A stretch of DNA of 64,000 nucleotides from the NCBI GenBank assembly GCA_964406935.1, contig CAYOTM010000001.1, positions 11,092 through 75,091 on the forward strand, given 5' to 3'. A model generated the notes under the pieces. That model did not search any database and was not told the DNA's origin. It was given only the letters and a program-made list of their open reading frames with translations. The translations under genes were made by a program, and so were the position numbers. This stretch comes from an uncultured Gammaproteobacteria bacterium (GTDB taxonomy: Bacteria > Patescibacteriota > Patescibacteriia > Patescibacteriales > UBA12465). This document shows positions 1,126 to 62,932 of this stretch, in pieces (the first letter of the stretch is position 1; each line of letters starts with the position of its first letter).

Positions 1126-3573
1126 TTAATTTTCTAAATTATTATCCCCACCTTCTGAGTTATTCAAGGAAGAGTCGTTGTCGTCTAAATTAGTTTCTTC
1201 AGTTAAGGGAGAACTGTCAAGATTTTCTGAGTCAACTTGCTCGCCAGTCTCAATCACTGGAACCGGCTCGGGCTCTACTGGTAGAGCAGGGCCAATAATT
1301 GGATTTACTACTGATTCAGGTATTAAAGGTTCAACAATCGGTTCCTCAACTGGTGGAGTTTGACTGTCAATAATATTTTTCCATTCTAAATCAGCCGCAG
1401 AATCTGGTACAAATTTCAAACCACTAACCTCTGATAAATTATCAGCGGGGACCAAACTATTGATTCGTAAAAATTTATTAGACAGGGTATATAAATAATT
1501 ACCAATATATAAACTTCTTTTAACAGTATTATCAAAATAAGATAAACCGCGCCAAGAATCTGATCGACCATAAAGACCACCATCGGAATGATCAACCCGC
1601 CCTCTTTCCTCAAAGCGATCGTTAATAATACTAAAAACAATTGCTCCAGAAAAATCCAGGGACTGATAAAAATCGGAGCGTAGAGCTGTCGGAATGACTA
1701 ATAAATTTTTACTTAAACTAAATAAAAATGCTCGATGATCATCCAGGGCGATTGATTGACTGCCAGCTCCACCAAAAATATAAGCATCTAGTTCTCGCGG
1801 ATTATTAATATCTTGAACATCAAATAAAGACAACTTTAAACCACCCAAACGAACATTGCCATAAGGATCTAAAGTAGTATCGCGACCTAAGCCAATTAAT
1901 TTATTATCATCATAAGGATGCAAATAAGTGGAAAAACCAGGAATTTTTAATTCCCCTAAAACTTGGGGGCTTTTTGGATCACTAAGATCTAAGGCAAATA
2001 ACGGATCAATTTCTTTAAAAGTTACTAAATATCCACGGGGGCCCAAAAAGCGAACGGAATAAATTCTTTCACCCGGAGCAAGATTGCTGACTGACCCAAC
2101 AAGTTGTAGTTGATTATCTAAAATATAAACACCTGAGCTAGATTCTTGAGATTCTTGGAAGCGACTAAAACGACGATCTAGCGTTGTCGCTACTCGCAAA
2201 TGACCATTATACTCATCAAAAGAAAATTGATTTAAAACCCGACCAGGAATTTCACCACTGGCTTGGTGCTGAGACCCTTCTTTAGTGATCGCAATTTTAT
2301 GAATTAAGGTAGTTTGCCAACGATCAGCGACTTCTTGATATTTAGTTTTTAAACGCTCCTCTAGCAATTGTTCTAAACGGTAACGCTCATCACTTGATTG
2401 CTGATTAACAAAAGCTTCCAATACCTGATCAATTTTTAGTTTTTTTTCATGATTAGTTAGTAAAAAGGCGGGAGCTTGTTCAATGGCAACAATTTTTTCC
2501 TGCTCAGCCGGCGCCAAAAGAGGTGACAATACCGCAAATTTACTTTCTAAAATTAAATCATATTCGCTTAAATATTGCGTACCACTAATATAAATCGCTT
2601 CTTTAGAAACATATAAATTTTGAGCACCATTTAACAAATAAATCTGACTATCAACCGGGATTGTCTGATCTTGTAAGTTAATAATATTTAAAGAACTAAA
2701 CATTAATTGATCATAATCAATATCAAAATAAAAAACTTCCGGCGCAAAACAAGGGTTATCGCCAGTACAAGTATTGGGCAATAAACGACCCCCATCAACC
2801 AGGCGAGGAATCAAAGGCTCACCCTCAATATAATTACTATAATTATTTAAAAGCAAATAAACCTGGCCATCAATTAGGCGCGATTGGAAATAAGTACCTT
2901 CAAAGTTTAAATCGCGTAAAGTCTTGGGATTATTTTTATCGCTAATATCAAAAATTTTAAAAAAGGTATAAGGAGTTTGTCTTTTAAAGCTGCGGTAAAT
3001 ATCAGTGGCAATAATTTGCTCGTCACTGCCCATCACCGCTAAGCGGTCACCATCAATAAAAATATCAGACGGTCGTGAACGAAAAGAAATTTTTGACTCA
3101 ATTTTTAATTCTTCGGGAGGAAAGGCTTTAATAATATAAAGATCATTGTAAACTAGAGCATAAATATAGTTACCATCAGTTTTAATTAAATCAGCTTCAT
3201 CAACGCCGGCTACTTGAATATTAGTAGTAGAAAAATCTGAAGAACCTTCTTCTAGTTGTTGTTTCATGGCTGGGGCCGCCTCGCTAAAAACCATATCATC
3301 CATCATGACCATGTCGCCACGAAGATAATTCATCGCTGCCCCTTGATTAATTTTCCAAGAACTTAAAAAAGTTTGTAAGTCATTATAGTCAGTAAATTTC
3401 TGCAAACTACCATTAGGGGCCTCCAAACTAAAAATTTCCACCTCCCCAATTTGCGCTACTGGTGGTTTTGTCTCCGGCGTAATTGTCTTTGGTTTGCGAA
3501 AATTCAGCGAACAACCAGTCAGTAAAAAGGCGAGAATAAAAATCGACAAGATTAAAAATAATTTATTTTTCAT
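1126..3573 (-). CDS. large secreted lipoprotein, probable C-terminal beta-propeller, with Pro/Glu/Asp-rich low-complexity tail
   Basis: Signal peptide plus lipobox (LLTGC). 815 aa; body resembles the beta-propeller secreted-protein family (PF09826-like). C-terminus PVEPEPVPV...DDNDSSLNNSEGGDNNLEN. Confidence 0.5.
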   Translation of the reverse strand: MKNKLFLILSIFILAFLLTGCSLNFRKPKTITPETKPPVAQIGEVEIFSLEAPNGSLQKFTDYNDLQTFLSSWKINQGAAMNYLRGDMVMMDDMVFSEAAPAMKQQLEEGSSDFSTTNIQVAGVDEADLIKTDGNYIYALVYNDLYIIKAFPPEELKIESKISFRSRPSDIFIDGDRLAVMGSDEQIIATDIYRSFKRQTPYTFFKIFDISDKNNPKTLRDLNFEGTYFQSRLIDGQVYLLLNNYSNYIEGEPLIPRLVDGGRLLPNTCTGDNPCFAPEVFYFDIDYDQLMFSSLNIINLQDQTIPVDSQIYLLNGAQNLYVSKEAIYISGTQYLSEYDLILESKFAVLSPLLAPAEQEKIVAIEQAPAFLLTNHEKKLKIDQVLEAFVNQQSSDERYRLEQLLEERLKTKYQEVADRWQTTLIHKIAITKEGSQHQASGEIPGRVLNQFSFDEYNGHLRVATTLDRRFSRFQESQESSSGVYILDNQLQLVGSVSNLAPGERIYSVRFLGPRGYLVTFKEIDPLFALDLSDPKSPQVLGELKIPGFSTYLHPYDDNKLIGLGRDTTLDPYGNVRLGGLKLSLFDVQDINNPRELDAYIFGGAGSQSIALDDHRAFLFSLSKNLLVIPTALRSDFYQSLDFSGAIVFSIINDRFEERGRVDHSDGGLYGRSDSWRGLSYFDNTVKRSLYIGNYLYTLSNKFLRINSLVPADNLSEVSGLKFVPDSAADLEWKNIIDSQTPPVEEPIVEPLIPESVVNPIIGPALPVEPEPVPVIETGEQVDSENLDSSPLTEETNLDDNDSSLNNSEGGDNNLEN

Positions 3574-3684: not shown

Positions 3685-5259
3685 TTAATTGTTTTTTTGA
3701 CTAAAATAACAGCCACAAAATTTTTGTAAATACCAACCCTTAGCTTTAGCAAAATTATAGGAGCGACGAAAACCATCGTTGGCTTGAAAATCAATATCAA
3801 GAAATTTAAGCTGATAATCTTGGGCTAACTGCTTGCCAATATTTTTTAAAGCCTGACTGTCTTTATAAGGACTAACCAACAAGCTACTACCAAAATAACC
3901 AAAACCCTGAGCCTTGGCTAGTTTAGCAGTTTTAGCTAAACGATCGCGATAACATAAACGGCAACGCTCCCCTCGTTCCAGATCTGCTTCATGGCCCTGG
4001 ACTAATTGTTGCCAAGGAGCCGGATCATAGGGTTCAATAATTAAATTAAAATTGTATTCATGGGCCGCCGCCTCAACCGCCTGCAAGCGCTTGTCATATT
4101 CTTCCTGAGAAACTAAATTAGGATTATAAAAATACCAAGTTAATTTAAACTCCTTATTTAATTTTTCTTTACTAAAATAACTAGCGCAGGGAGCGCAACA
4201 AATATGAAATAATAAGCTCGGTCGTTTATCAACATAATAAGAAAAATAAATAACAATCCCTAGCATTAATAAAAACAAGATTAATAAAGCTAAAATTTTC
4301 CCCTGACTTTGGAGGAATAAACCACTAATTCCAAAAAATATTGCTAGACCATAATAAAATAGAGCGGTCTGACGCTGACTAAAACCAGAGTCTAGCAGGC
4401 GATGATGAAGATGTTGACGATCAGCAAATCGCAAGGGATTTTTCCCAGCCTTTAAGCGTCGAATAATTGTCCAAGCAACATCTAAGGCGGGCAGACCAAT
4501 AATTAATAAAGTGATGGCAATCTTAGCGCCCGAAATAATCGCTAACACTCCCAAGCTATAACCAACCAGTAAAGATCCTCCGTCTCCTAAAAAAACTGAG
4601 GCTGGAAAAAAATTAAATAATAAAAATCCTAAACAGGCAGCACTAAAAATTAAAGCGGCTAAAGCAATGTCTGGTTGATAATAAGGAGTTAATAAAGTAA
4701 ATAGAAAAATGATAAACGCCCCAATTGTTCCTAGGCCGGTAACTAAGCCATCAATCCCATCTAGTAACTTAGTGGTATACATCATGCCTAGCAACCAAAT
4801 AATAATAATAGCGGAGCTTAGCCAATTAATATTCTCTAAAGAAATGACTCCACCTCCCGGATTACTCAGGCGAGCAATTTCTACCCCACCTAATAAAACA
4901 GCAATAATTGCTAACAAAGGAAAAATAATTTGCTGCCAAGGAGATAATTTAAAACGATCATCTAAAGTGCCGCCAATCATTAAAATTAAAGCCCCGATTA
5001 AAAATCCCAGCCAATGACGATAATCAAGGTCGCCAGCAATCAACTGAGGGGTCACTAAAATCAACCCAATTAAAAAAGCCAAAAAAATCGCCCAACCACC
5101 CCCCAAAGGAATCGCTTGGCGATGAATTTTTCGCTGTTTATCGGGAAAATCTAACAATTTAAAACGCAAAGCTAATTGTCGCCAAAAAACAGTAAAAATA
5201 GCAGAAACTGCTAATGTTAGGAAAAAATATAAGAGATATAGGTAATTAAACATAGGCAA
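3685..5259 (-). CDS. fusion protein: N-terminal GT4 MraY/WecA-family polyprenyl-phosphate N-acetylhexosamine-1-phosphate transferase (about aa 1-340) plus C-terminal QueH-like (DUF208, epoxyqueuosine reductase family) domain (about aa 345-524)
   Basis: N-part: about 10 TM helices with the motifs LDDRFKL, LDGIDGLVTG and VFLGDGGSL of MraY/WecA transferases. C-part: LLFHICCAPCASYF and KFCGCYFS, the two cysteine motifs of DUF208/QueH. Continuous reading frame across the junction with no internal start. Confidence 0.75.
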   Translation of the reverse strand: MPMFNYLYLLYFFLTLAVSAIFTVFWRQLALRFKLLDFPDKQRKIHRQAIPLGGGWAIFLAFLIGLILVTPQLIAGDLDYRHWLGFLIGALILMIGGTLDDRFKLSPWQQIIFPLLAIIAVLLGGVEIARLSNPGGGVISLENINWLSSAIIIIWLLGMMYTTKLLDGIDGLVTGLGTIGAFIIFLFTLLTPYYQPDIALAALIFSAACLGFLLFNFFPASVFLGDGGSLLVGYSLGVLAIISGAKIAITLLIIGLPALDVAWTIIRRLKAGKNPLRFADRQHLHHRLLDSGFSQRQTALFYYGLAIFFGISGLFLQSQGKILALLILFLLMLGIVIYFSYYVDKRPSLLFHICCAPCASYFSKEKLNKEFKLTWYFYNPNLVSQEEYDKRLQAVEAAAHEYNFNLIIEPYDPAPWQQLVQGHEADLERGERCRLCYRDRLAKTAKLAKAQGFGYFGSSLLVSPYKDSQALKNIGKQLAQDYQLKFLDIDFQANDGFRRSYNFAKAKGWYLQKFCGCYFSQKNN

Positions 5260-5351
5260 ACTAGGATAAATTAGTTGACAATTAGGGATATTTAGCCTAA
5301 AATAAGAGGACGTTCAAAAATAATGTTCATTTTAAAAAAGGAGGTCTATGT

Positions 5352-5726
5352 ATGAAGAAAAGAAACAGGCGGTTGCAACCGCTAATTGAGGCGTTTGAGA
5401 ATAATCAAAGCGCAGATTTTATTGAAAAACTCAACCCCCAAGACGTAGGGAATTTATTAAATCTGATCGAGCTCCGGGAAAAAGAGCTCACCAGCCATTA
5501 CCACCTAATGAGGGGAAAAGTTCACCAAGAAATCAGCACTCAACATGTTCTTAAATCGGCTTTGGCAACGATTGCCGACATTGAGCTCGCTCAATTTGAG
5601 CAGTTAGCGGCCATCAGGCAACTGCTTGTTGTAAAAAAACAAGCAAACCAAGAAAGAAAACAAGAAAGAATCCTCATGTATGAGGAAAATCAGCAAACAC
5701 CGCTGAGAATGGCTGCCGGCGCCTAA
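5352..5726 (+). CDS. hypothetical protein, predicted coiled coil
   Basis: 124 aa, charged and Gln/Glu-rich. A terminator follows. Confidence 0.4.
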   Translation: MKKRNRRLQPLIEAFENNQSADFIEKLNPQDVGNLLNLIELREKELTSHYHLMRGKVHQEISTQHVLKSALATIADIELAQFEQLAAIRQLLVVKKQANQERKQERILMYEENQQTPLRMAAGA

Positions 5727-5753
5727 GCTAAGGCCCGTGCCCCAAAACAACCA

Positions 5754-5782
5754 GAAGGCTTCAAGCAATTGAAGCCTTTTTT
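5754..5782 (+). terminator. rho-independent terminator
   Basis: AAGGCTTCAA-gcaa-TTGAAGCCTT followed by TTTTTC. Confidence 0.6.
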
Positions 5783-5787
5783 TCATT

Positions 5788-8469
5788 TTATAGATCCCTC
5801 CCTTTTTCTACTTCAATTTCTCCGCGATAATTAACAATCACCGTATCACGACGCTTGAGCTCACCAGCTAATAATTTATTAGCAATAATATTTTCTACTT
5901 TGTCTTGCAATAAGCGACGCAACGGGCGAGCGCCAAATTTGGGATCATAACCTTGACGGGCTAACTCTAAAACACCGTCACGATCAGCTCGCATAAATAA
6001 ACCCTTGCTAGTAATGTTTTGCTTAATATTTTTCAACATCAAGGTAGCAATTCTAAAAATATGATCTTCAGATAAAGGAGTAAAGACAATAATCCCATCA
6101 AAACGATTAATTAATTCCGGGCGCATATGTTGATTTAAGCGATTATCAACTAATTCTTGTCTGATTTCTTCAACTTTCGTATTTTTCTTAATTTCCTCTT
6201 GAATGTAGTTGGCTCCGATATTAGAAGTGGCGATAATAATTGATTCGGTAAAACTAATCGTTCTTCCCTGACCATCAGTTAAGCGTCCGTCATCAAGCAT
6301 TTGTAAAAATAAATTTAAAATATCGGGATGCGCTTTTTCAATTTCATCAAATAAAATTAGGGCAAAAGGTTTTTTACGCACCGCTTCGGTTAAATGACCC
6401 AAAGTACCGTCAACATCACCAATCATTTTGCGAACACTCTCCGGGCGCTGATATTCACTCATATCAATCCGGACCATATATTGTTCGCCGCCAAAGTAAA
6501 CCTCAGACACGGTTTTGGCTAATTCGGTTTTACCAACGCCAGTTGGCCCTAAAAAGAGAAAGCTAGCAATTGGCCGTTTATTGTCTTTAATGGCTGCTCG
6601 CGAGCGCCTTAAACTAGCTGCCACTGCCTTGACAGCTTCTTCTTGACCAATCATGCGACGATGAATTTCCTCTTCTAAATTTAATAATTTAACACTTTCA
6701 TCTTCGGTAATTTTTTGAATCGGGACACCAATTAAGTCAGAAATTGCCGCCGACACTTCCTCGCCCTGACATAGGGCTCGCTGAGGATCGTGACGAGCTG
6801 CTTTAGCGGAAATGATGGCGGCTGATCGTAAAAGATCAATTGCCTTGGCGGGTAAAAATTTATCGTGTAAATATTTGACTGACAATTTAACCGCCTGATC
6901 AAGGGCGCTATAAGAAAAAAAGATACCGTGGTTGGCTTCAATGCTAGCCACTTTACTTTCTAAAATTTGAATTACCTGATTATGACTGGGCTCCGCAACG
7001 CCCACGGTAGTCATCGCTTCACCCAAGGCCTGCCCCTCAACATAACGAGAATAATTTTCCGAATTAACCGTCGCTAAACAATAAACATGCCGACGCGTTA
7101 AGGCCTCGGCTAAAACTTCCGATAAATCTAAGCTTTGTTCTTGGCCGGCCGTAATCCCAATAATATTTTCAATGTTATTAATATACAAAACGATATTGCC
7201 AGCCCGACTAGCTTCACTAATTGAACTAAGCATTCTTTCCTGAGAAACATTGGGATTAGCGCCACTGACTAAGCGAGAAATATCCAGTTCAACCAAGCGA
7301 CGATCTTTTAAAAATTTTGGCACTTCTTCGCTAACCATTAATTGGGCGATACCTTCGACAATCGTTCGTTTGCCAACACCAGTATGTCCAACTAGTAAAA
7401 TTCCTGTTTGACCACTAGCCAAAGATTCAAAAACAGAATCAATTTCTTGTTGACGACCGACACAAAATTCTAAACGACCATTTTTAGCTGCTAAGGTTAA
7501 GTCATGTGAAAAGTGATCTAGGGTGGGTGTAGCAATCGCCGTATAGGCACGATTCATGCCGCTTGATGGTTTAAAAGCCGCTAGCTTCCGCCAAGAACGT
7601 AAACGATCTAACATTTTTTCATTGGTAAAGGCCCAAGCGACCACATTTTTTAACTTATCTTCATCAAGCTCTAAATCATACAAAATATCGGCTAATAATT
7701 TATCTTGAGACCAGCAAAAGGCCAAGAGATTAACTGGATTAACCGCTGGCTGACGCCGCCTAACTGTTTCTTGAAAAGCAAAAATTAATAATTCCTGTAA
7801 TTTATCAGACCACTTTAGTTTACCAGTAAATTCTTGAGGATCATTAATATTTAAATGTTTATCTAATTTAGTTACTAAGTCAGGAGCAGAAATGCCTAAG
7901 CGAACAAATAAAGCTTGGACTTCTTTATTTTTTAACAAAGCTCTAAATAAATGCAAAACACCCACTTCATTTTGTTTTAAACGATTAGTAAGCAGCCAAG
8001 CATCTTCTAAAACAATATCGGCCGCCTGACTATAGGCTTGACTAACATTATAGTCAATTAATTTACTGTTTAAGGGAACATCATCTTGATTAAATGGTTT
8101 GTGATGAATTTTATTAATCGCGGCCTGCTCTTCGCTTTGACGATAAATAAAAAAGAGGGCAAAGGACCAAGAAAGGAGAAACCATAAAACTAGTGGGTGG
8201 GGCTGTCGCCAAAACATTAAAAGTTCCCGGGGATCAAGTTGAATACTTTGGGTTTGTAAAAACAACCAAATAAGTAAAGCTAGCCAACCAGAAATTGCTA
8301 ACCCTAAAGAAATTTTTTTAATTAATTTATCAAGTTGGCGACGGCTACGAATTAAGACAATAAAAGCTAAGCTCAAATCTAACTTCCAATACAAAAAATG
8401 TTGACGCCAATTTAGACCCCAGTGATTACTCTCAGCTTGATGATAAAATTTAATCTCCACCTCATCCAT
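5788..8469 (-). CDS. membrane-anchored Hsp100/Clp-family AAA+ protein (ClpB/ClpC paralog) with a degenerate first nucleotide-binding domain
   Basis: 893 aa: 2-3 N-terminal TM helices, Clp_N-like repeats, then NBD1 with GHTGVGKR (Walker A Thr to Arg) and VLYINNIEN (Walker B DE to NN), then an intact NBD2 ([32 protein letters not shown]). No M-domain coiled coil and no IGF/LGF ClpP-docking loop. Confidence 0.8.
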   Translation of the reverse strand: MDEVEIKFYHQAESNHWGLNWRQHFLYWKLDLSLAFIVLIRSRRQLDKLIKKISLGLAISGWLALLIWLFLQTQSIQLDPRELLMFWRQPHPLVLWFLLSWSFALFFIYRQSEEQAAINKIHHKPFNQDDVPLNSKLIDYNVSQAYSQAADIVLEDAWLLTNRLKQNEVGVLHLFRALLKNKEVQALFVRLGISAPDLVTKLDKHLNINDPQEFTGKLKWSDKLQELLIFAFQETVRRRQPAVNPVNLLAFCWSQDKLLADILYDLELDEDKLKNVVAWAFTNEKMLDRLRSWRKLAAFKPSSGMNRAYTAIATPTLDHFSHDLTLAAKNGRLEFCVGRQQEIDSVFESLASGQTGILLVGHTGVGKRTIVEGIAQLMVSEEVPKFLKDRRLVELDISRLVSGANPNVSQERMLSSISEASRAGNIVLYINNIENIIGITAGQEQSLDLSEVLAEALTRRHVYCLATVNSENYSRYVEGQALGEAMTTVGVAEPSHNQVIQILESKVASIEANHGIFFSYSALDQAVKLSVKYLHDKFLPAKAIDLLRSAAIISAKAARHDPQRALCQGEEVSAAISDLIGVPIQKITEDESVKLLNLEEEIHRRMIGQEEAVKAVAASLRRSRAAIKDNKRPIASFLFLGPTGVGKTELAKTVSEVYFGGEQYMVRIDMSEYQRPESVRKMIGDVDGTLGHLTEAVRKKPFALILFDEIEKAHPDILNLFLQMLDDGRLTDGQGRTISFTESIIIATSNIGANYIQEEIKKNTKVEEIRQELVDNRLNQHMRPELINRFDGIIVFTPLSEDHIFRIATLMLKNIKQNITSKGLFMRADRDGVLELARQGYDPKFGARPLRRLLQDKVENIIANKLLAGELKRRDTVIVNYRGEIEVEKGRDL

Positions 8470-8473
8470 AAGT

Positions 8474-8914
8474 TTAGGCTAATAATTGTTCATAAATTGC
8501 CCAAGCTAAAGCTAGGGGCCAGGCAATCCATAAAATAACCAAAATTAAACAAGCGATTAACCAGGCGAGTAAAATAAAGGTACGGGCAACAATTTGTACT
8601 AAGCGAACCAAGAAACTAATAAGTCGACCAGTGATATCAAATTGACCATACATCGGGACAAAAATATTTTTGATCCACACCCAGACCCCTAAAGAATAAA
8701 ACTGATCTTGCCAAAAATAAAAAATTCGTTTGGAAAAACGAAGTAAGCCGGTGCTATACCACCAGACTGGAAAATATAAAAATTGACCAACGACACCCGC
8801 TAATAAAGAAAAACGGGTGGTAAAATAATTATCAGACTTCATACTTAAATAGTATACCACAAAAAGACTAGAGGATAAATATAAAAAAATTATTATTGCC
8901 CAATAATTAAACAA
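8474..8914 (-). CDS. small Trp-rich membrane protein co-transcribed with the Clp paralog
   Basis: 146 aa with 4 predicted TM helices. Its stop lies 5 bp before the Clp-paralog start. Confidence 0.5.
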   Translation of the reverse strand: MFNYWAIIIFLYLSSSLFVVYYLSMKSDNYFTTRFSLLAGVVGQFLYFPVWWYSTGLLRFSKRIFYFWQDQFYSLGVWVWIKNIFVPMYGQFDITGRLISFLVRLVQIVARTFILLAWLIACLILVILWIAWPLALAWAIYEQLLA

Positions 8915-8957
8915 CTGCTAGCAATTGACAAGCTATTTATTGTATATTATCATGGAC

Positions 8958-8984
8958 TTAGCACTCTCAAATTGAGACTGCTAA
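8958..8984. promoter_or_regulatory. CIRCE-like HrcA operator between the divergent clp-paralog operon and clpB
   Basis: TTAGCACTC-tcaaattga-GACTGCTAA against consensus TTAGCACTC-N9-GAGTGCTAA (1 mismatch). Confidence 0.6.
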
Positions 8985-9009
8985 TTACAAATTTAATTAA
9001 AATTCTAAT

Positions 9010-11637
9010 ATGTTCAATAAATTTACCGATAAATCACAGGAGGCGATTATTAATGCCCAAGTAATTGCTAGCAATTTTGGCCAAGCTAGCATTGAAGCCA
9101 TCCACTTATTATTATCTCTCTTGCAACAAAATGAAGGCCTAGTAAAGCCTGTTTTGGAAAAATTAAAAATTGACCCCGAGGTAGTGGAAACTTATGCTCT
9201 AGATGAAATTAAAAAATTACCCAGCAGTGAAATTACTCGACCCAGTGGTCCGATTCAGGCTGTCTCTGGAAACAATGAAACCGCCCTGGTTTTAGAAAGA
9301 TCAAAAAAAGAATCCGACGGCATGGGCGATGAATTTATTTCCACCGAACACATTTTCTTAGCTTTAATTGGCATCAAGTCAGCTGCCCAACAAATTCTTC
9401 TAAATTTTAAAGTGGAGTATCAAGAGGTAAAAACTATTCTTCAAGAATTACGCGGTGACGCTAAAATTACTGACCCCTTCCCTGAAACTAAATTCAAAGT
9501 TTTAGAAAAATATACCACTAACTTAACTGGACTAGCTCGTCAAGAAAAACTTGACCCAGTAGTTGGTCGCGACACCGAAATTAGACGCTTAATGCAAGTT
9601 TTACTTCGACGGACTAAAAATAATCCAGTCTTAATTGGTGAGGCGGGCACAGGAAAAACAGCGATTGTTGAAGGCTTAGCTCAAAGAATTGTTGATGGTG
9701 ACGTCCCAGAAAATTTAAAAAATAAAGAAATCATTACTCTTGATTTAGGATCTTTAGTGGCCGGCGCGAAATTTCGGGGCGAATTTGAAGATCGTTTAAA
9801 GGCAGTCCTTAAAGAAGTTCAAAGCCAGCAAGGAAAAATTATTTTATTTATTGATGAGCTCCATACTTTAATCGGCACCGGGGCTTCAGAAGGATCAATG
9901 GATGCTTCTAATATGTTAAAACCGGCCTTGGCCCGAGGTGAGCTTCGAACTATTGGCGCCACCACCACCAAGGAATATCAAAAATATATCGAAAAAGATG
10001 CTGCTCTGGAGCGCCGCTTTCAACCAGTTTTTGTAGCTGAGCCAAATATTGAAGATACCACTAATATGCTTCGCGGCTTAAAAGAAAAATATGAAGTTCA
10101 TCATGGAGTACACATTACTGACGATGCGTTAGTAGCGGCCGCTAAATTATCGGATCGCTACATTGCTGATCGCTTTTTACCCGATAAGGCCGTTGATTTA
10201 ATTGATGAAGCAACTTCTTCTCTGCGAATGGAAATTGATTCCATGCCCGATGAACTAGACCAGCTAAAAAGAAAGATCAAACAACTAGAGATCAACAAAG
10301 CAGCTTTATTATCAACTAACAAAAAAACTGTTAAGTTAAAAACAATTAATCAAGAATTAGCTAAAATTAAGGAGCGGGCCAAACAACTCGAACTTCACTG
10401 GACTAATGAAAAAAATATTATTTCCGATATTCGTCTCAAAAAGAAAGAGATTGAAGAATTACGTATTAAAGCAGAAATTGCCCAACGACAAGGCAGTGAT
10501 TTAACTGAAGTGGCCAAAATTAAATATGCCCTGATTCCAGAACTGGAAACCAGTATTAATAAACTTCAAGCTGATTTATTAAAAATTCAAAAGAAGGGTC
10601 AACGAATCTTAAAAGAAGAGGTTGATGAAGAAGATATTGCCAAAGTAGTTTCTCGCTGGACCGGAATTCCGGTTAACAAAATGTTAGCCGATGAAATTAA
10701 AAAATTATCCACCGCTGAAACTGAACTCCAGGCAGAAGTGATTGGCCAAGATGAAGCAATTGCCTCAATTGCTAAGGCCTTAAGACGCTCTCGCGCCGGC
10801 ATTAATGAAGAACAACGACCAATTGGCTCCTTCTTATTTATTGGTCCGACTGGTGTAGGAAAAACCGAACTAGCTAAAACCCTCACTCGCTTTATTTTTA
10901 ATGATGAAAGCGCAATGATTCGTTTAGATATGAGCGAATATATGGAAAAACATTCCGTCGCTAAATTAATTGGCTCCCCGCCCGGCTATATTGGCCATGA
11001 TGAAGGTGGCCAATTAACCGAAAAAGTCAGACGTCATCCTTACAGTGTGCTCTTGTTTGACGAAATTGAAAAAGCGCACCCCGATATGTTTAATATGCTC
11101 CTACAAATTCTCGATGATGGTCGTTTAACTGACTCCAAAGGACGAGTGGTGAACTTTAAAAATACCATTATTATTATGACCTCGAACTTAGGCAATGAAA
11201 TTATTAAACAATACTCCATTGGTTTTAGTGGCGATGAGGAAGTGTCTCTTGGCCGTGACAAGGAAATGCGAGAAAAGATTGACAAACTTTTACGTCAGCA
11301 TTTTAAATTAGAATTTATTAACCGAATCGATGAAATCGTTTTGTTTAAAAGTCTTAGCCCGGAATCTTTAGAAAAAATTGTTGATCTGGAACTAGCTAAA
11401 GTCGAGAAGCGCCTCCATAATAAAAATATTAGTCTCAAGGTTCACCAAAAAGTGAAAAAAATGTTAGCTGAAAAAGGCTATGATATTAGTTATGGCGTCA
11501 GACCCTTAAAACGAATTATTAAAACAGCTATTTTAGATGAACTAGCCAGTAAAATTATTGAAGGCAAAATTAAAGAAGGCCAAAAAGTGAAAATCGATGT
11601 TGGCCAAGAAGATAAAGTTGTCATGACGGCTGTTTAA
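9010..11637 (+). CDS. clpB: ATP-dependent chaperone ClpB
   Basis: 875 aa with a Clp_N domain, NBD1 ([27 protein letters not shown]), a long M-domain coiled coil, and NBD2 ([18 protein letters not shown]). Confidence 0.9.
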
Positions 11638-48698: not shown

Positions 48699-48725
48699 TT
48701 AGCAGTCAAGATAGTTGAGTGCTAA
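48699..48725. promoter_or_regulatory. CIRCE operator upstream of groES-groEL
   Basis: TTAGCAGTC-aagatagtt-GAGTGCTAA (1 mismatch), placed directly downstream of the -10. Confidence 0.7.
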
Positions 48726-48853: not shown

Positions 48854-49642
48854 ATGACTATTTGGCAAAGTATTATTTTAGGGATAGTAGAGGGAATTAC
48901 TGAGTTTCTCCCAGTTTCTTCTACTGCTCACCTCTTAATTAGTGCTGATTTATTAAAAATCCCTAGCTCTGATTTTTTAAAAAGTTTTACCATTTCTATT
49001 CAATTAGGGGCAATTTTGTCAGTGGCGATTTTATATTTAAAAACTATTTGGCGACATAAAAAATTAATCTTAAAAATCGCTGCTGCTTTTTTACCAACGG
49101 CTATAATTGGTCTAGCTGCCTATGGGATTATTCGTGGCATATTAATGGAAAATTTAGTAATTATTGCGAGCGCTCTAATAATTGGAGGGGTGTTCTTAAT
49201 TATTTTAGAAAATCGTTTTAAGAAAAAGTTTAGCGATAGCGATGATCAATTAAGTAAGCTAACTAATATTTCCTATAAACAAGCTGTATTGATTGGTGTC
49301 TGCCAATCTTTAGCCATTATTCCCGGAGTATCACGCTCAGCTGCCACCATTATGGGCGGTTTATCTCTCGGCTTAAATCGTCGTACTATTGTGGAGTTTT
49401 CTTTTATGTTGGCTCTACCAGTAATGTTAGCAGCGACCATTCTAGATTTTTATAAAACCCCAATAACATTAACTAATCAAGAATGGCTAGTTTGGGGAAT
49501 TGGTTTTATTATTTCTTTTATTGTTGCCGTTCTGAGTATTAAATTCCTTCTACACTTTATTAAAAATAATGATTTTAAAATTTTTGGCTGGTATCGTATA
49601 GTGATTGGAACAATTATTTTAGCAATTTATTATTTAGCCTAA
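48854..49642 (+). CDS. uppP: undecaprenyl-diphosphatase
   Basis: GIVEGITEFLPVSSTAHLLI, SRSAATI; 262 aa with 8 TM helices. Confidence 0.9.
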   Translation: MTIWQSIILGIVEGITEFLPVSSTAHLLISADLLKIPSSDFLKSFTISIQLGAILSVAILYLKTIWRHKKLILKIAAAFLPTAIIGLAAYGIIRGILMENLVIIASALIIGGVFLIILENRFKKKFSDSDDQLSKLTNISYKQAVLIGVCQSLAIIPGVSRSAATIMGGLSLGLNRRTIVEFSFMLALPVMLAATILDFYKTPITLTNQEWLVWGIGFIISFIVAVLSIKFLLHFIKNNDFKIFGWYRIVIGTIILAIYYLA

Positions 49643-61317: not shown

Positions 61318-62172
61318 TTATTTTTCATTATTATTTTCTAGTTCGGAAGCAACAATTACTTTAGCTGGTTTGAGCAAGCGACCATTCAATTTATAGCCAG
61401 GGGAAATTTCTTTAACCACTGCCCCTCCTTGTCCTTCAATTGCCTCCATAGTGTGATGATCAAATTGAGCACCAACGGTAGAAATTTCTTCAACTCCGTG
61501 ACTATTTAAAACTTCTTTAAATTGCCGTAAAACATGGTTAACTCCTGCCACCCAAGCATTATCCTGTTCAGCTGGCGGCAAGGAAGAAATTGATAATTTT
61601 AAATGATCATAAACGGGTAATAATTCATGCAAAAAATCATTTAAAGCAAACTTAGCAAATTCTTCTTTTTCTCGATTAGTTTTTTTCAATAAATTCTGAT
61701 AATCAGCTAAAGACCGCTGATATTTATCTTGATAATCTTCAGCTTGAACAGCTTGACAACTAAGCCAGTGCTTAATTAAATTGCTAGTCAAATCAGAAAT
61801 TTTTAAAGTAGTTAATTCTTGTTCATCTTTTAACCACCGATACCGCGTTTCATCCAACTTATCAGTCAATTTTTTATCATCAACGGCCACCGCAAAATTT
61901 AAAGAAATTAATGATTTATCTGACGAATAATCAGTAAGATTAAGATTATCTAAATTAGTGATAAATTCAATTTTTTCTGGCTTAAAACCAAAGTGCTCAG
62001 CAAAAATTCTATCAACTGCTTGTTCAATTGTTTCCCCTAACACAACCCGATCAGAGATTAATGACCAATCTTTATCTGCTTGATGATTTTTAGTTAATAA
62101 TACTTCTGGCTTATTATTATAAGGCAAAATATTAATAATTAACTGGGAATTTAAGTGTTTTTTTTCAATCAT
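61318..62172 (-). CDS. grpE: GrpE nucleotide-exchange factor with an N-terminal ~130-aa extension carrying a degenerate MutT-like Nudix box
   Basis: C-terminus FDHHTMEAIEG and GYKLNGRLLKPAKVIV are GrpE hallmarks. N-terminus LGETIEQAVDRIFAEHFGF against E. coli MutT GETPEQAVVRELQEEVGI. Confidence 0.8.
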   Translation of the reverse strand: MIEKKHLNSQLIINILPYNNKPEVLLTKNHQADKDWSLISDRVVLGETIEQAVDRIFAEHFGFKPEKIEFITNLDNLNLTDYSSDKSLISLNFAVAVDDKKLTDKLDETRYRWLKDEQELTTLKISDLTSNLIKHWLSCQAVQAEDYQDKYQRSLADYQNLLKKTNREKEEFAKFALNDFLHELLPVYDHLKLSISSLPPAEQDNAWVAGVNHVLRQFKEVLNSHGVEEISTVGAQFDHHTMEAIEGQGGAVVKEISPGYKLNGRLLKPAKVIVASELENNNEK

Positions 62173-62188
62173 AGGTGTTTAATAACAA

Positions 62189-62875
62189 TTATTTTAATTT
62201 TTCTTGAATCAAAGATAAAAGAGCTGCATTATGGCCATAATTCATTCGCATTGGACCTAAAATTCCACATAAACCAGAGTGATTCTTTTGACGATATTTT
62301 ATCATTGTTGTTCCTAAAAAAGGCCCAAAGGGATTATTAGTGCCGACTTTAAAATACAAGCCATCAGCTAATTCATCAAACAACTTGTCAATAATTTCTT
62401 CCATTCGATCAATTACTAAAGAAACATCATAAACAGCTTCTGATTGTTTAAACTCTGGTTGCATAAAAATATTAGACAAACCAGTATAATACAAATCATT
62501 TTTATGGAAGGCCCAAAAAATAGCATTACCGGCTAAATCTGCTAAAACTTTAGCTGTATTGCGTAAATCCCGATTTAAAGTATCTAAAGACTCAGCTACA
62601 CGACTAGCTTCGATAGTTTTTAGCTCGGGCAAATGATCACCTAAAGCTTCAATTTCCAATAAATAAGCCGCCTCGGTTGGCACTCTTCCGGCTGAGGTGT
62701 GCGGTTGATAAATGTAGCCTGATTCCTCAAGGGCCATTAAATCATTGCGAATAGTCGCTGGTGAGACCCCTAAGCGATAATTAGCGGCCAATCCTCCAGA
62801 GGACACTGGTTGACCAGTTTTGACATACTCTTTAATTAGAGTCCGCAAAATTAATTGTTGACGATTTTGACTCAT
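62189..62875 (-). CDS. hrcA: heat-inducible transcription repressor HrcA
   Basis: QRQQLILRTLIKEYVKTGQPVSSGGLA...ATIRNDLMALEESGYIYQPHTSAGRVPT. Confidence 0.85.
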   Translation of the reverse strand: MSQNRQQLILRTLIKEYVKTGQPVSSGGLAANYRLGVSPATIRNDLMALEESGYIYQPHTSAGRVPTEAAYLLEIEALGDHLPELKTIEASRVAESLDTLNRDLRNTAKVLADLAGNAIFWAFHKNDLYYTGLSNIFMQPEFKQSEAVYDVSLVIDRMEEIIDKLFDELADGLYFKVGTNNPFGPFLGTTMIKYRQKNHSGLCGILGPMRMNYGHNAALLSLIQEKLK

Positions 62876-62905: not shown

Positions 62906-62932
62906 TTAGCACTCAAGTCAAGAGAGTGCTAA
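62906..62932. promoter_or_regulatory. CIRCE operator (perfect consensus) upstream of hrcA-grpE-hsp20-dnaK-dnaJ
   Basis: TTAGCACTC-aagtcaaga-GAGTGCTAA. Confidence 0.8.

Follow-up and report, generated by a model that had tools for sequence, protein, structure and literature searches.

A membrane-anchored Hsp100/Clp paralog of Patescibacteria with a catalytically dead first ring and a conserved small hairpin partner

What is the function of a second two-ring Hsp100/Clp ATPase that is encoded divergently from clpB and appears to be held in the membrane? The gene in question lies in a stretch of 64,000 nucleotides of contig CAYOTM010000001.1 (GenBank assembly GCA_964406935.1, positions 11,092 to 75,091), which was analysed as a whole and is called the window hereafter; all coordinates below are those of the window. 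It is an intact open reading frame (ORF) of 893 amino acids (aa) (5788-8469, minus strand, stop codon included), preceded by a gene for a small membrane protein. An earlier note, made from the sequence of this locus, had proposed a heat-shock-controlled device for the extraction or unfolding of membrane proteins, outside the described Clp subfamilies. Our analysis places the ATPase best in an Hsp100 subfamily, so far uncharacterised, that is integral to the membrane, has a single motor and comes with a partner of its own. With some hesitation, we read it as a membrane-proximal remodeller with a single motor and an obligate membrane adaptor, acting without proteolysis on proteins of the membrane or of envelope biogenesis. 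Heat-shock control of the pair, in contrast, was not supported.

The Clp-type layout described in the earlier note, with Clp_N-like repeats followed by two AAA+ modules, was found both by Pfam and in the AlphaFold2 (AF2) model, the Clp_N part being marginal. Pfam matched AAA_2 (residues 632-791), ClpB_D2-small (799-879) and AAA_lid_9 (496-563), with E-values of 2.7e-53, 8.1e-20 and 3e-12, and the Clp_N match (163-206) reached 20.1 bits for a cutoff of 20.7; PF02861 (Clp_N) is precomputed in most homologs. The AF2 model, obtained from 98 homologs with a mean predicted local distance difference test (pLDDT) score of 83.6, places in order a beta-hairpin (residues 17-27), a long first transmembrane (TM) helix, a short outside loop, a second TM helix (92-118), a Clp_N-like domain of helical repeats (142-298; 7576-8046, minus strand; pLDDT about 90), a disordered linker (299-313), and a first nucleotide-binding domain (NBD1) running straight into the second (NBD2). 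ClpC and ClpB were the top matches to this model in a Foldseek search of the PDB (E down to 3e-57, and 1e-57 for ClpC); they were also the closest entries in a PDB sequence search, which found no solved structure for any member of the family. The ATPase is a ClpC/ClpB-derived double-AAA+ protein. It shares with class-I Hsp100 proteins the two AAA+ modules, the Clp-type lid AAA_lid_9, the AAA_2 plus ClpB_D2-small combination and the Clp_N domain, but it does not have hydrolysis-competent motifs in both rings, nor a Tyr pore loop in either.

The catalytic motifs were compared by aligning the 893-aa ATPase with the neighbouring ClpB. In NBD1 (residues 317-565; 6775-7521, minus strand), Walker A reads GVGKR where ClpB has GTGKT and Walker B reads YINNIEN instead of FIDELH, confirming the two substitutions noticed earlier. 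Further losses had been overlooked: the Arg fingers (ERRF in ClpB) are replaced by GEAM, the NBD1 pore loop (KFRGEFE in ClpB) by NPNVSQE, and the pore-loop Tyr is missing from both rings. Conservation of these changes was scored in a clade set of 177 unique members and in a deep set of 90 sequences, made up of 89 representatives and the window protein. None of the 177 clade members has the Walker B Glu in NBD1, Asn being found there nearly throughout, and the Asp-Glu pair occurs in only one of the 90 deep sequences. Similarly, the Arg-finger pair is seen in 8/90 deep sequences and the pore-loop segment is aromatic in a single clade member (1/177). The Walker A Ser/Thr is retained in about 125 of the 177; in the subclade of the window it is changed to Lys or Arg, mostly along with loss of the Walker B Asp. 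At the Walker A Lys position, the deep set shows Lys in 76/90 and Arg in 11/90 sequences. Since the Walker B Glu and the Arg fingers, as well as the pore-loop Tyr, are gone in nearly all members, NBD1 is, as judged by its motifs, unable to hydrolyse ATP by the standard mechanism.

The loss of several catalytic signatures could point to a decaying Clp pseudogene or to a strain-specific artefact. This explanation is refuted by conservation and we give it practically no credit: the ORF is intact, NBD2 is near-invariant, the partner is conserved, homologs form 242 clusters, and a near-identical protein occurs in an independent data set (P0001). The substitutions are no sequencing errors either, as they recur in hundreds of homologs. 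Mean pairwise identity within the clade is 0.66 for NBD1, compared with 0.78 for NBD2 and 0.47 for the N-domain, and NBD1 still reaches 0.38 in the deep set. On sequence grounds, the ring is dead yet not decaying.

How widespread is this type of protein? Using the divergent N-terminal half of the ATPase, we retrieved 593 proteins, nearly all of about 890 aa with full-length matches and some of them at E=0. In nearly all cases they come from Patescibacteria (Falkowbacteria and others), under generic labels such as 'ATP-dependent Clp protease ATP-binding subunit', 'ClpC' or 'AAA family ATPase'. A HMMER search with residues 1-330 gave the 242 clusters at 50% identity, of which 152 had E <=1e-10; the named members, including Uhrbacteria, are all Patescibacteria. 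The family is therefore old and widespread within this group. No description of it was found in Pfam, NCBIfam, PADLOC models or full-text literature searches, and no Hsp100/Clp protein described as membrane-integral was found across four curated model libraries and the full-text literature. The view that the protein lies outside the described Clp subfamilies was thus upheld, and the proviso that it might fall within a known membrane-bound subfamily with the same partner was half borne out: the family is large and has the same partner, but it is an undescribed one. A role in anti-phage defence was considered and rejected, as PADLOC gave generic AAA+ similarity only and the partner had no match. 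As regards the taxonomic labels, dozens of syntenic contigs from metagenome-assembled genomes (MAGs) among the related loci L001-L080 bear the title 'uncultured Gammaproteobacteria', and a single one 'Bacillota'. Since these contigs agree with Patescibacteria in the genes they carry and in gene order, the titles are probably placeholders or mislabels.

The second ring was called intact in the earlier note, which holds for its catalytic motifs only. NBD2 (residues 566-893; 5791-6774, minus strand; delimited by Pfam and motif alignment) keeps Walker A (GPTGVGKT), Walker B (LFDEIEKAH), sensor 1 (TSN), the Arg finger (NRFD) and sensor 2 (GARPLRR). Walker A is present in 90/90 deep sequences and the Walker B Asp-Glu in 88/90, with the other catalytic motifs near-invariant. 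Its pore loop is nevertheless altered: instead of the GYIG type of ClpB the ATPase carries GDVDGTLGH, with a five-residue deletion and the canonical Tyr replaced (GYIG to GTLG). In the clade the loop reads G[TAS]LGY (GTLGY in 113/177 members) and the canonical position is never aromatic. Only 8/90 deep members have the canonical GAPPG[YF], the loop being Gly-rich or shortened in the remainder.

Two other hallmarks of Hsp100 proteins are missing, as had been claimed. The ClpA model matched the ATPase in one stretch (residues 149-879; 463.6 bits, cutoff 993), whereas the match to the ClpB model TIGR03346 (549 bits, cutoff 1232) was split in two pieces, which indicates the absence of the M-domain; accordingly, no coiled coil was seen in the AF2 model. 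The segment IGANYIQEEIKKNTKVEEIRQELVDNRLNQHM, between the NBD2 sensor 1 and Arg finger, contains no [ILVM]G[FLM] motif, and just 3/177 clade members have an IGF-like motif there; for lack of this motif the ATPase has no ClpP-docking loop. The claim that the protein is neither disaggregase-like nor a protease partner is in line with these two absences. Motif scans detected no ClpP or FtsH genes within the window, the rest of the genome lying outside that scan.

We then turn to the membrane anchor, for which two or three N-terminal helices had been announced; the anchor stands, with two helices. TM helix 1 spans residues 53-71 (8257-8313, minus strand; Kyte-Doolittle 2.23; within the model helix 34-71) and TM helix 2 residues 91-109 (8143-8199, minus strand; Kyte-Doolittle 1.64; model helix 92-118), with a short outside loop (residues 72-90) between them. 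All 90 deep sequences have one or two TM-grade segments, or more, within their first 200 residues. TM2 is the best-conserved membrane segment (pairwise identity 0.60), and the outside loop is poorly conserved (0.33 within the clade and 0.10 across the deep set). Lys plus Arg counts average 3.8 ahead of TM1, 1.9 in the loop and 5.5 past TM2, indicating an N-in/C-in topology by the positive-inside rule. The N-terminus and the AAA+ body (Clp_N-NBD1-NBD2) are thus predicted to be cytoplasmic, with the two-helix hairpin as the membrane hold. The alternative of a signal peptide was ruled out, although without a dedicated signal-peptide predictor: the first hydrophobic helix starts only at residue 53, after a conserved cytoplasmic segment, and both helices obey the positive-inside rule.

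This cytoplasmic N-terminal segment (residues 1-52; 8314-8469, minus strand) consists, in the AF2 secondary structure, of the small beta-hairpin (17-27) and a basic stretch ahead of TM1. In 62/90 deep sequences at least two CxxC motifs precede TM1, and in two clade loci that carry an N-terminal extension (L055 and L065) they read CxxCxGxG. A cytoplasmic zinc ribbon was probably ancestral in the family and lost in the clade of the window; residues 1-52 are likely a remnant of this ribbon. As a side observation, paired CxxC N-termini also occur in L074, L076 and the deep representatives P0203-P0270, and the CxxCxGxG of L055 and L065 recalls the zinc finger of DnaJ; what is left in the clade of the window is the beta-hairpin.

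The best-conserved segment of the whole ATPase is the linker between the Clp_N-like domain and NBD1 (residues 299-316, GMNRAYTAIATPTLDHF; 7522-7575, minus strand), its pairwise identity reaching 0.79 within the clade and 0.51 across the deep set. Its invariant columns form the family signature G-MNRAYTAIATPTLDHF while it is predicted to be disordered (pLDDT <50). It might serve for docking or as a pseudo-substrate.

Is the ATPase anchored alone? Directly upstream lies the gene for the small same-strand membrane protein mentioned above, which had been described as a 146-aa protein with four TM helices, 5 bp away. The longest ORF (8474-8914, TTG start, 146 aa) does have this length, but its N-terminal extension is not conserved: in an alignment of 71 upstream ORFs, conservation starts at Met25, the ATG at 8842. 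We therefore rejected the 146-aa, four-helix reading, the first of the four helices being an ORF over-extension, and assign the partner to 8474-8842 (minus strand, 122 aa) from the alignment, homologs, AF2 and synteny. A protein of exactly these 122 aa has already been called in public data (P0121). Its 76 homologs (105-134 aa, most of them 120-125) are all 'hypothetical' and have no Pfam domain, nor did the partner itself match any Pfam or NCBIfam model. In the AF2 model (pLDDT 93.2), two very long helices (6-50 and 70-121) fold into a hairpin whose open end holds the N- and C-terminal hydrophobic segments and whose tip is an invariant loop, NIFVPMYGQxD. The arms between membrane and tip are strongly basic (8.3 Lys plus Arg against 2.3 Asp plus Glu), which indicates that the tip is cytoplasmic. 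The possibility that the partner is a relative of the N-terminal membrane region of the ATPase was rejected in a profile-profile comparison (probability 0.1%).

The pairing of the two genes is conserved in essentially every locus examined, in answer to the co-occurrence check that the earlier note had suggested. Among contigs taken at one genome per species, about 66 loci carry a partner homolog immediately upstream of the ATPase gene and in the same orientation; in the few cases with no match, upstream DNA is lacking, L060 being an unexplained exception. A partner is also present in seven of seven deep representative loci, in one of which it had been missed by the gene caller (genes of the related loci were called crudely, as longest ORFs). 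The two genes overlap or stand 3-6 nt apart in almost all genomes; the median gap is 5.5 nt, the commonest values are 3-4 nt, overlaps are frequent, and the gap in the window measures 4 nt. Such near-overlapping spacing argues for co-transcription of the pair and, probably, translational coupling.

This pairing also bears on a translocon-like arrangement, in which six hairpins of the ATPase and six of the partner (24 helices) would line a conduit through the membrane, coaxial with the AAA+ pore, for the passage of a polypeptide or another polymer. It would fit a two-gene module with overlapping or nearly overlapping genes, described as stoichiometric, TM hairpins in both proteins, a TM2 conserved above the other membrane segments, and the analogies of HSP101-EXP2 in PTEX and of Bcs1. 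Patescibacteria are episymbionts in need of macromolecule exchange. However, the outside loop shows little conservation and is short, the pore loops have no gripping residues, and secretion-system genes are not consistently adjacent to the pair. We regard a translocon-coupled motor as very unlikely, and keep to the remodeller with a membrane adaptor.

Is the pair under heat-shock control? The spacer between the partner and clpB starts (8843-9009, 167 bp) contains a CIRCE (controlling inverted repeat of chaperone expression) operator, TTAGCACTC-N9-GACTGCTAA, with one mismatch (8958-8984, no strand assigned), 25 bp before the clpB ATG. The site noticed earlier is thus real, and three CIRCE sites are found in the window where 0.02 are expected; that it is an operator shared by both genes did not hold. 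It sits immediately downstream of the -10 element of a promoter-like site for clpB (TTGACA-17-TATCAT, 8925-8953, plus strand, 11/12 positions). For the partner-ATPase unit, a consensus scan gave a candidate sigma-70-like promoter (TTGTCA-17-AATTAT, 8903-8931, minus strand, 9/12 positions), the -35 hexamers of the two promoters overlapping. In 44 loci with a divergent clpB, CIRCE lies a median of 26.5 bp (sd 21) from the start of clpB, but anywhere between 63 and 2062 bp from that of the partner. CIRCE is present at 44 of 45 clpB neighbours, moves along with clpB where the latter is displaced by 1-2 kb, and does not precede the pair in the 17 loci in which neither a long clpB ORF within 10 kb nor a nearby CIRCE was detected. 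Because its distance is tied to clpB and it follows that gene, CIRCE is the operator of clpB, which together with the CIRCE beside its promoter has hrcA in the genome (62189-62875), as expected of a member of the HrcA/CIRCE regulon. The pair itself does not appear to be a conserved member of this regulon, and its proposed heat-shock control is left unsupported, no CIRCE preceding the pair wherever clpB lies farther off or is missing. A CIRCE placed between two divergent genes does not turn both of them into heat-shock genes.

These results weaken the idea of a heat-shock (HrcA/CIRCE)-controlled extractase, which would thread misfolded membrane proteins out of the bilayer in the manner of FtsH or Msp1, but with no protease. 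Such a device would be consistent with the membrane anchor, which puts the N-domain side nearest the membrane, with an NBD2 that is an active motor by its motifs, and with clpB and its CIRCE lying next to the pair across a short spacer; divergent clpB is a frequent, though not obligate, neighbour (41/64 loci). The canonical GAPPG[YF] loop in 8/90 deep relatives also indicates that threading may be ancestral. Against these points, the canonical pore-loop aromatic is missing from both rings in the clade and from most deep members, whereas Tyr-to-Ala changes at the equivalent position abolish threading by ClpB/Hsp104; CIRCE tracks clpB and not the pair; and several of the deepest loci have tgt, and not clpB, as the upstream neighbour of the partner. 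We consider this explanation unlikely, and the extraction or unfolding activity first proposed is likewise made weaker by the missing aromatics.

The divergent clpB (9010-11637, plus strand, 875 aa) deserves a comment of its own. It is divergent as stated, but not fully canonical, since besides a full M-domain it carries a conserved IGF loop. Its match to TIGR03346 is one stretch of 1180 bits, slightly under the cutoff of 1232. An S-IGF loop at the ClpP-docking position of ClpA/ClpC is present in 47/47 ClpB neighbours examined (L001-L073), and in the ClpB of the window. By analogy with the engineered 'BAP' variant, which it resembles, this protein may be a natural ClpB/ClpC hybrid. The two other CIRCE sites of the window lie before the hrcA-grpE-hsp20-dnaK-dnaJ operon (62906-62932, a perfect site) and between groES-groEL (minus strand) and bacA/uppP (48854-49642, plus strand) (48699-48725). 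The latter is likewise in a divergent spacer facing an envelope gene (undecaprenyl-diphosphatase), which mirrors the clpB/partner layout. In the first operon, GrpE (61318-62172, minus strand) has an N-terminal NUDIX domain and HrcA (62189-62875, minus strand) is short (228 aa), with the C-terminal domain only plus a DeoR-like helix-turn-helix match.

On its other side, the ATPase gene is usually followed by a gene for a WecA-like transferase of glycosyltransferase family 4 (GT4), found downstream on the same strand in 66/75 loci with a median gap of 26 bp. The linkage extends to distant Uhrbacteria-type loci, with gaps of 4-5 bp. As mraZ-rsmH-ftsL lie close by in one Uhrbacteria locus, MraY was considered as an alternative identity and rejected, the WecA model scoring higher (119-121 bits, below its cutoff, against 53-56 bits for MraY). 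In the window the transferase is fused to QueH (3685-5259, minus strand; Pfam, NCBIfam WecA 118.8 bits) and is separated from the ATPase by a convergent insert, a 124-aa ORF with no Pfam match (5352-5726, plus strand) and its own sigma-70-like promoter (5275-5303, 11/12 positions). A bidirectional terminator-like hairpin (5753-5780, no strand assigned) lies just past the ATPase stop codon. Since GT4 is cut off by this inserted gene with its promoter and by the terminator, the transcription unit of the window is probably the partner and the ATPase alone.

Other genes recur around the module. A different ORF of about 106 aa occupies the spot of the insert in about 10 related loci. Behind GT4, an 815-aa beta-propeller protein (PF09826) and a 269-aa multi-TM protein without Pfam match keep their order in about 50 loci (1126-3573 and 314-1123, both minus strand, in the window). 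Queuosine genes flank the module on both sides across lineages: QueH as above, and tgt (queuine tRNA-ribosyltransferase) directly upstream of the partner in deep relatives, or one gene away in L086. This association is listed for the window (3685-5259), L074, L078, L080, L081, L083 and L086.

Does the ATPase move polypeptides at all? Torsins are Clp/HSP100-related, membrane-associated proteins that have no aromatic pore loops and need transmembrane cofactors (PMC5425593). By extension, the ATPase could be a switch without translocation, its NBD2 ATP cycle toggling assembly, with the partner as an activating or docking cofactor, so as to regulate where the WecA-like or another envelope enzyme is located or how active it is. 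The combination of Torsin features does recur here, the operon is linked to GT4, and the NBD2 pore loop is variable in length and Gly-rich in deep members. On the other hand, NBD2 has its own Arg finger and all catalytic residues, so that active-site complementation is unneeded, the strong conservation of GTLGY in the clade (113/177) suggests a remaining contact with something, and the GT4 linkage is not universal. A Torsin-like switch is unlikely in our view, and we return to the membrane-proximal remodeller.

The module is a conserved operon of Patescibacteria, with the hairpin partner, the membrane-anchored Hsp100 and, usually, the WecA-like polyprenyl-phosphate sugar transferase as recurring genes. 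In our tentative reading, the ATPase would form a hexamer with its N-domain/NBD1 face toward the membrane, as in FtsH, NBD1 serving as a structural assembly ring, possibly nucleotide-binding, and NBD2 as the sole motor. The partner would be an obligate membrane adaptor or regulator, its tip docking on the Clp_N domain, the N-terminal hairpin or the linker 299-316. Membrane or envelope-biogenesis proteins would then be remodelled or released without proteolysis, the WecA-like enzyme being the most obvious candidate client, and since the pore-loop aromatics are gone, the grip on substrates would be weak or non-canonical.

Several points weigh against this reading. The hexamer, the ring orientation and the partner contact are steps that we infer. 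TM helices were called from hydropathy and AF2 alone, without a dedicated TM predictor. The GT4 linkage is absent in the deep loci L074, L076, L077, L085 and L088 and interrupted in the window, and it may reflect inherited synteny instead of function. An ATPase without pore-loop aromatics could also do no mechanical work on polypeptides. Finally, in short spacers such as the 167 bp found here, CIRCE-bound HrcA could affect the divergent promoter sterically, although such an effect on the promoter of the pair is not conserved.

We also considered a bolder scheme, a long shot at present, in which a 6:6 ring of partner and ATPase (24 TM helices), coaxial with the single-motor Hsp100, gates or drives the passage of a polymer through the membrane, or acts as an ATP-controlled switch on the enzyme that starts envelope glycopolymer synthesis. 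If this were true, the machine would have no bacterial precedent, the polymer being a protein or a lipid-linked envelope precursor. The ultra-small episymbiotic Patescibacteria would then have, as a speciality of theirs, a prokaryotic equivalent of Torsin/LAP1 or of PTEX HSP101/EXP2.

More generally, few AAA+ machines have been studied as thoroughly as the Hsp100/Clp proteins, and the mix of features described here has not been seen together: a TM hairpin anchor with a probably ancestral zinc ribbon, a conserved but dead first ring, a live second ring without pore-loop Tyr, no M-domain, no ClpP loop and an obligate small hairpin partner. Because their genomes are minimal, genes retained in Patescibacteria tend to matter, and both the envelope biology and the symbiotic lifestyle of these bacteria are poorly understood. 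Once characterised, the family would provide an example of a threading motor repurposed at the membrane and, given the WecA-like gene of the operon, its study could expose a regulatory or quality-control step of envelope synthesis.

Comparison with known systems places the ATPase closest to ClpC/ClpA, with which it shares the order of a Clp_N domain and two AAA+ modules. ClpC gives the best matches both in sequence (for example 6em8, 428 bits) and in fold (9a66/9rai), the 'TPTLD' linker resembles that of ClpC, and the absence of an M-domain is shared with ClpA. It differs from both by its membrane anchor, its dead NBD1, the loss of pore-loop Tyr, and the lack of the IGF/IGL docking loop and of the short M-domain of ClpC type; while ClpC/ClpA use MecA, McsB or ClpS, a dedicated hairpin partner is found here instead. 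With ClpB/Hsp104 it has in common the D2-small domain, an NBD2 that is 42% identical to that of the neighbouring ClpB and, often, the genomic neighbourhood. In contrast to ClpB, it is membrane-bound, with a dead NBD1 and neither M-domain nor pore tyrosines; without an M-domain, no coupling to DnaK is expected from what is established for ClpB. ClpV/TssH (TIGR03345) gave 409.7 bits for a cutoff of 884.95, no type VI secretion genes were noticed beside the pair in the loci examined, and the NCBIfam models for ClpB, ClpA, ClpK/G and ClpV all matched far under their cutoffs.

Beyond the Hsp100 proteins, FtsH and Msp1/ATAD1 likewise use an N-terminal TM anchor to set an AAA+ ring under the membrane. 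They belong to another AAA+ clade, whereas the ATPase is a two-ring Hsp100 with no protease domain, Pfam having found neither M41 nor another peptidase domain in it, and FtsH and Msp1 keep aromatic pore loops. Its NBD1 may be compared with NSF D2 and PEX1/6 D1, conserved non-hydrolysing rings plausibly kept for assembly, the P-loop Lys being mostly kept in NBD1; NSF and PEX1/6 are soluble proteins of clades unrelated to the Hsp100 ATPase. Torsin with LAP1/LULL1 offers the same Clp/HSP100 kinship, membrane association, non-aromatic pore loops and transmembrane cofactor as the ATPase. Torsins, however, are eukaryotic, single-ring and lumenal, and receive their Arg finger from a cofactor of AAA-like fold, while the patescibacterial ATPase has an Arg finger of its own in NBD2 and a small hairpin for a partner.

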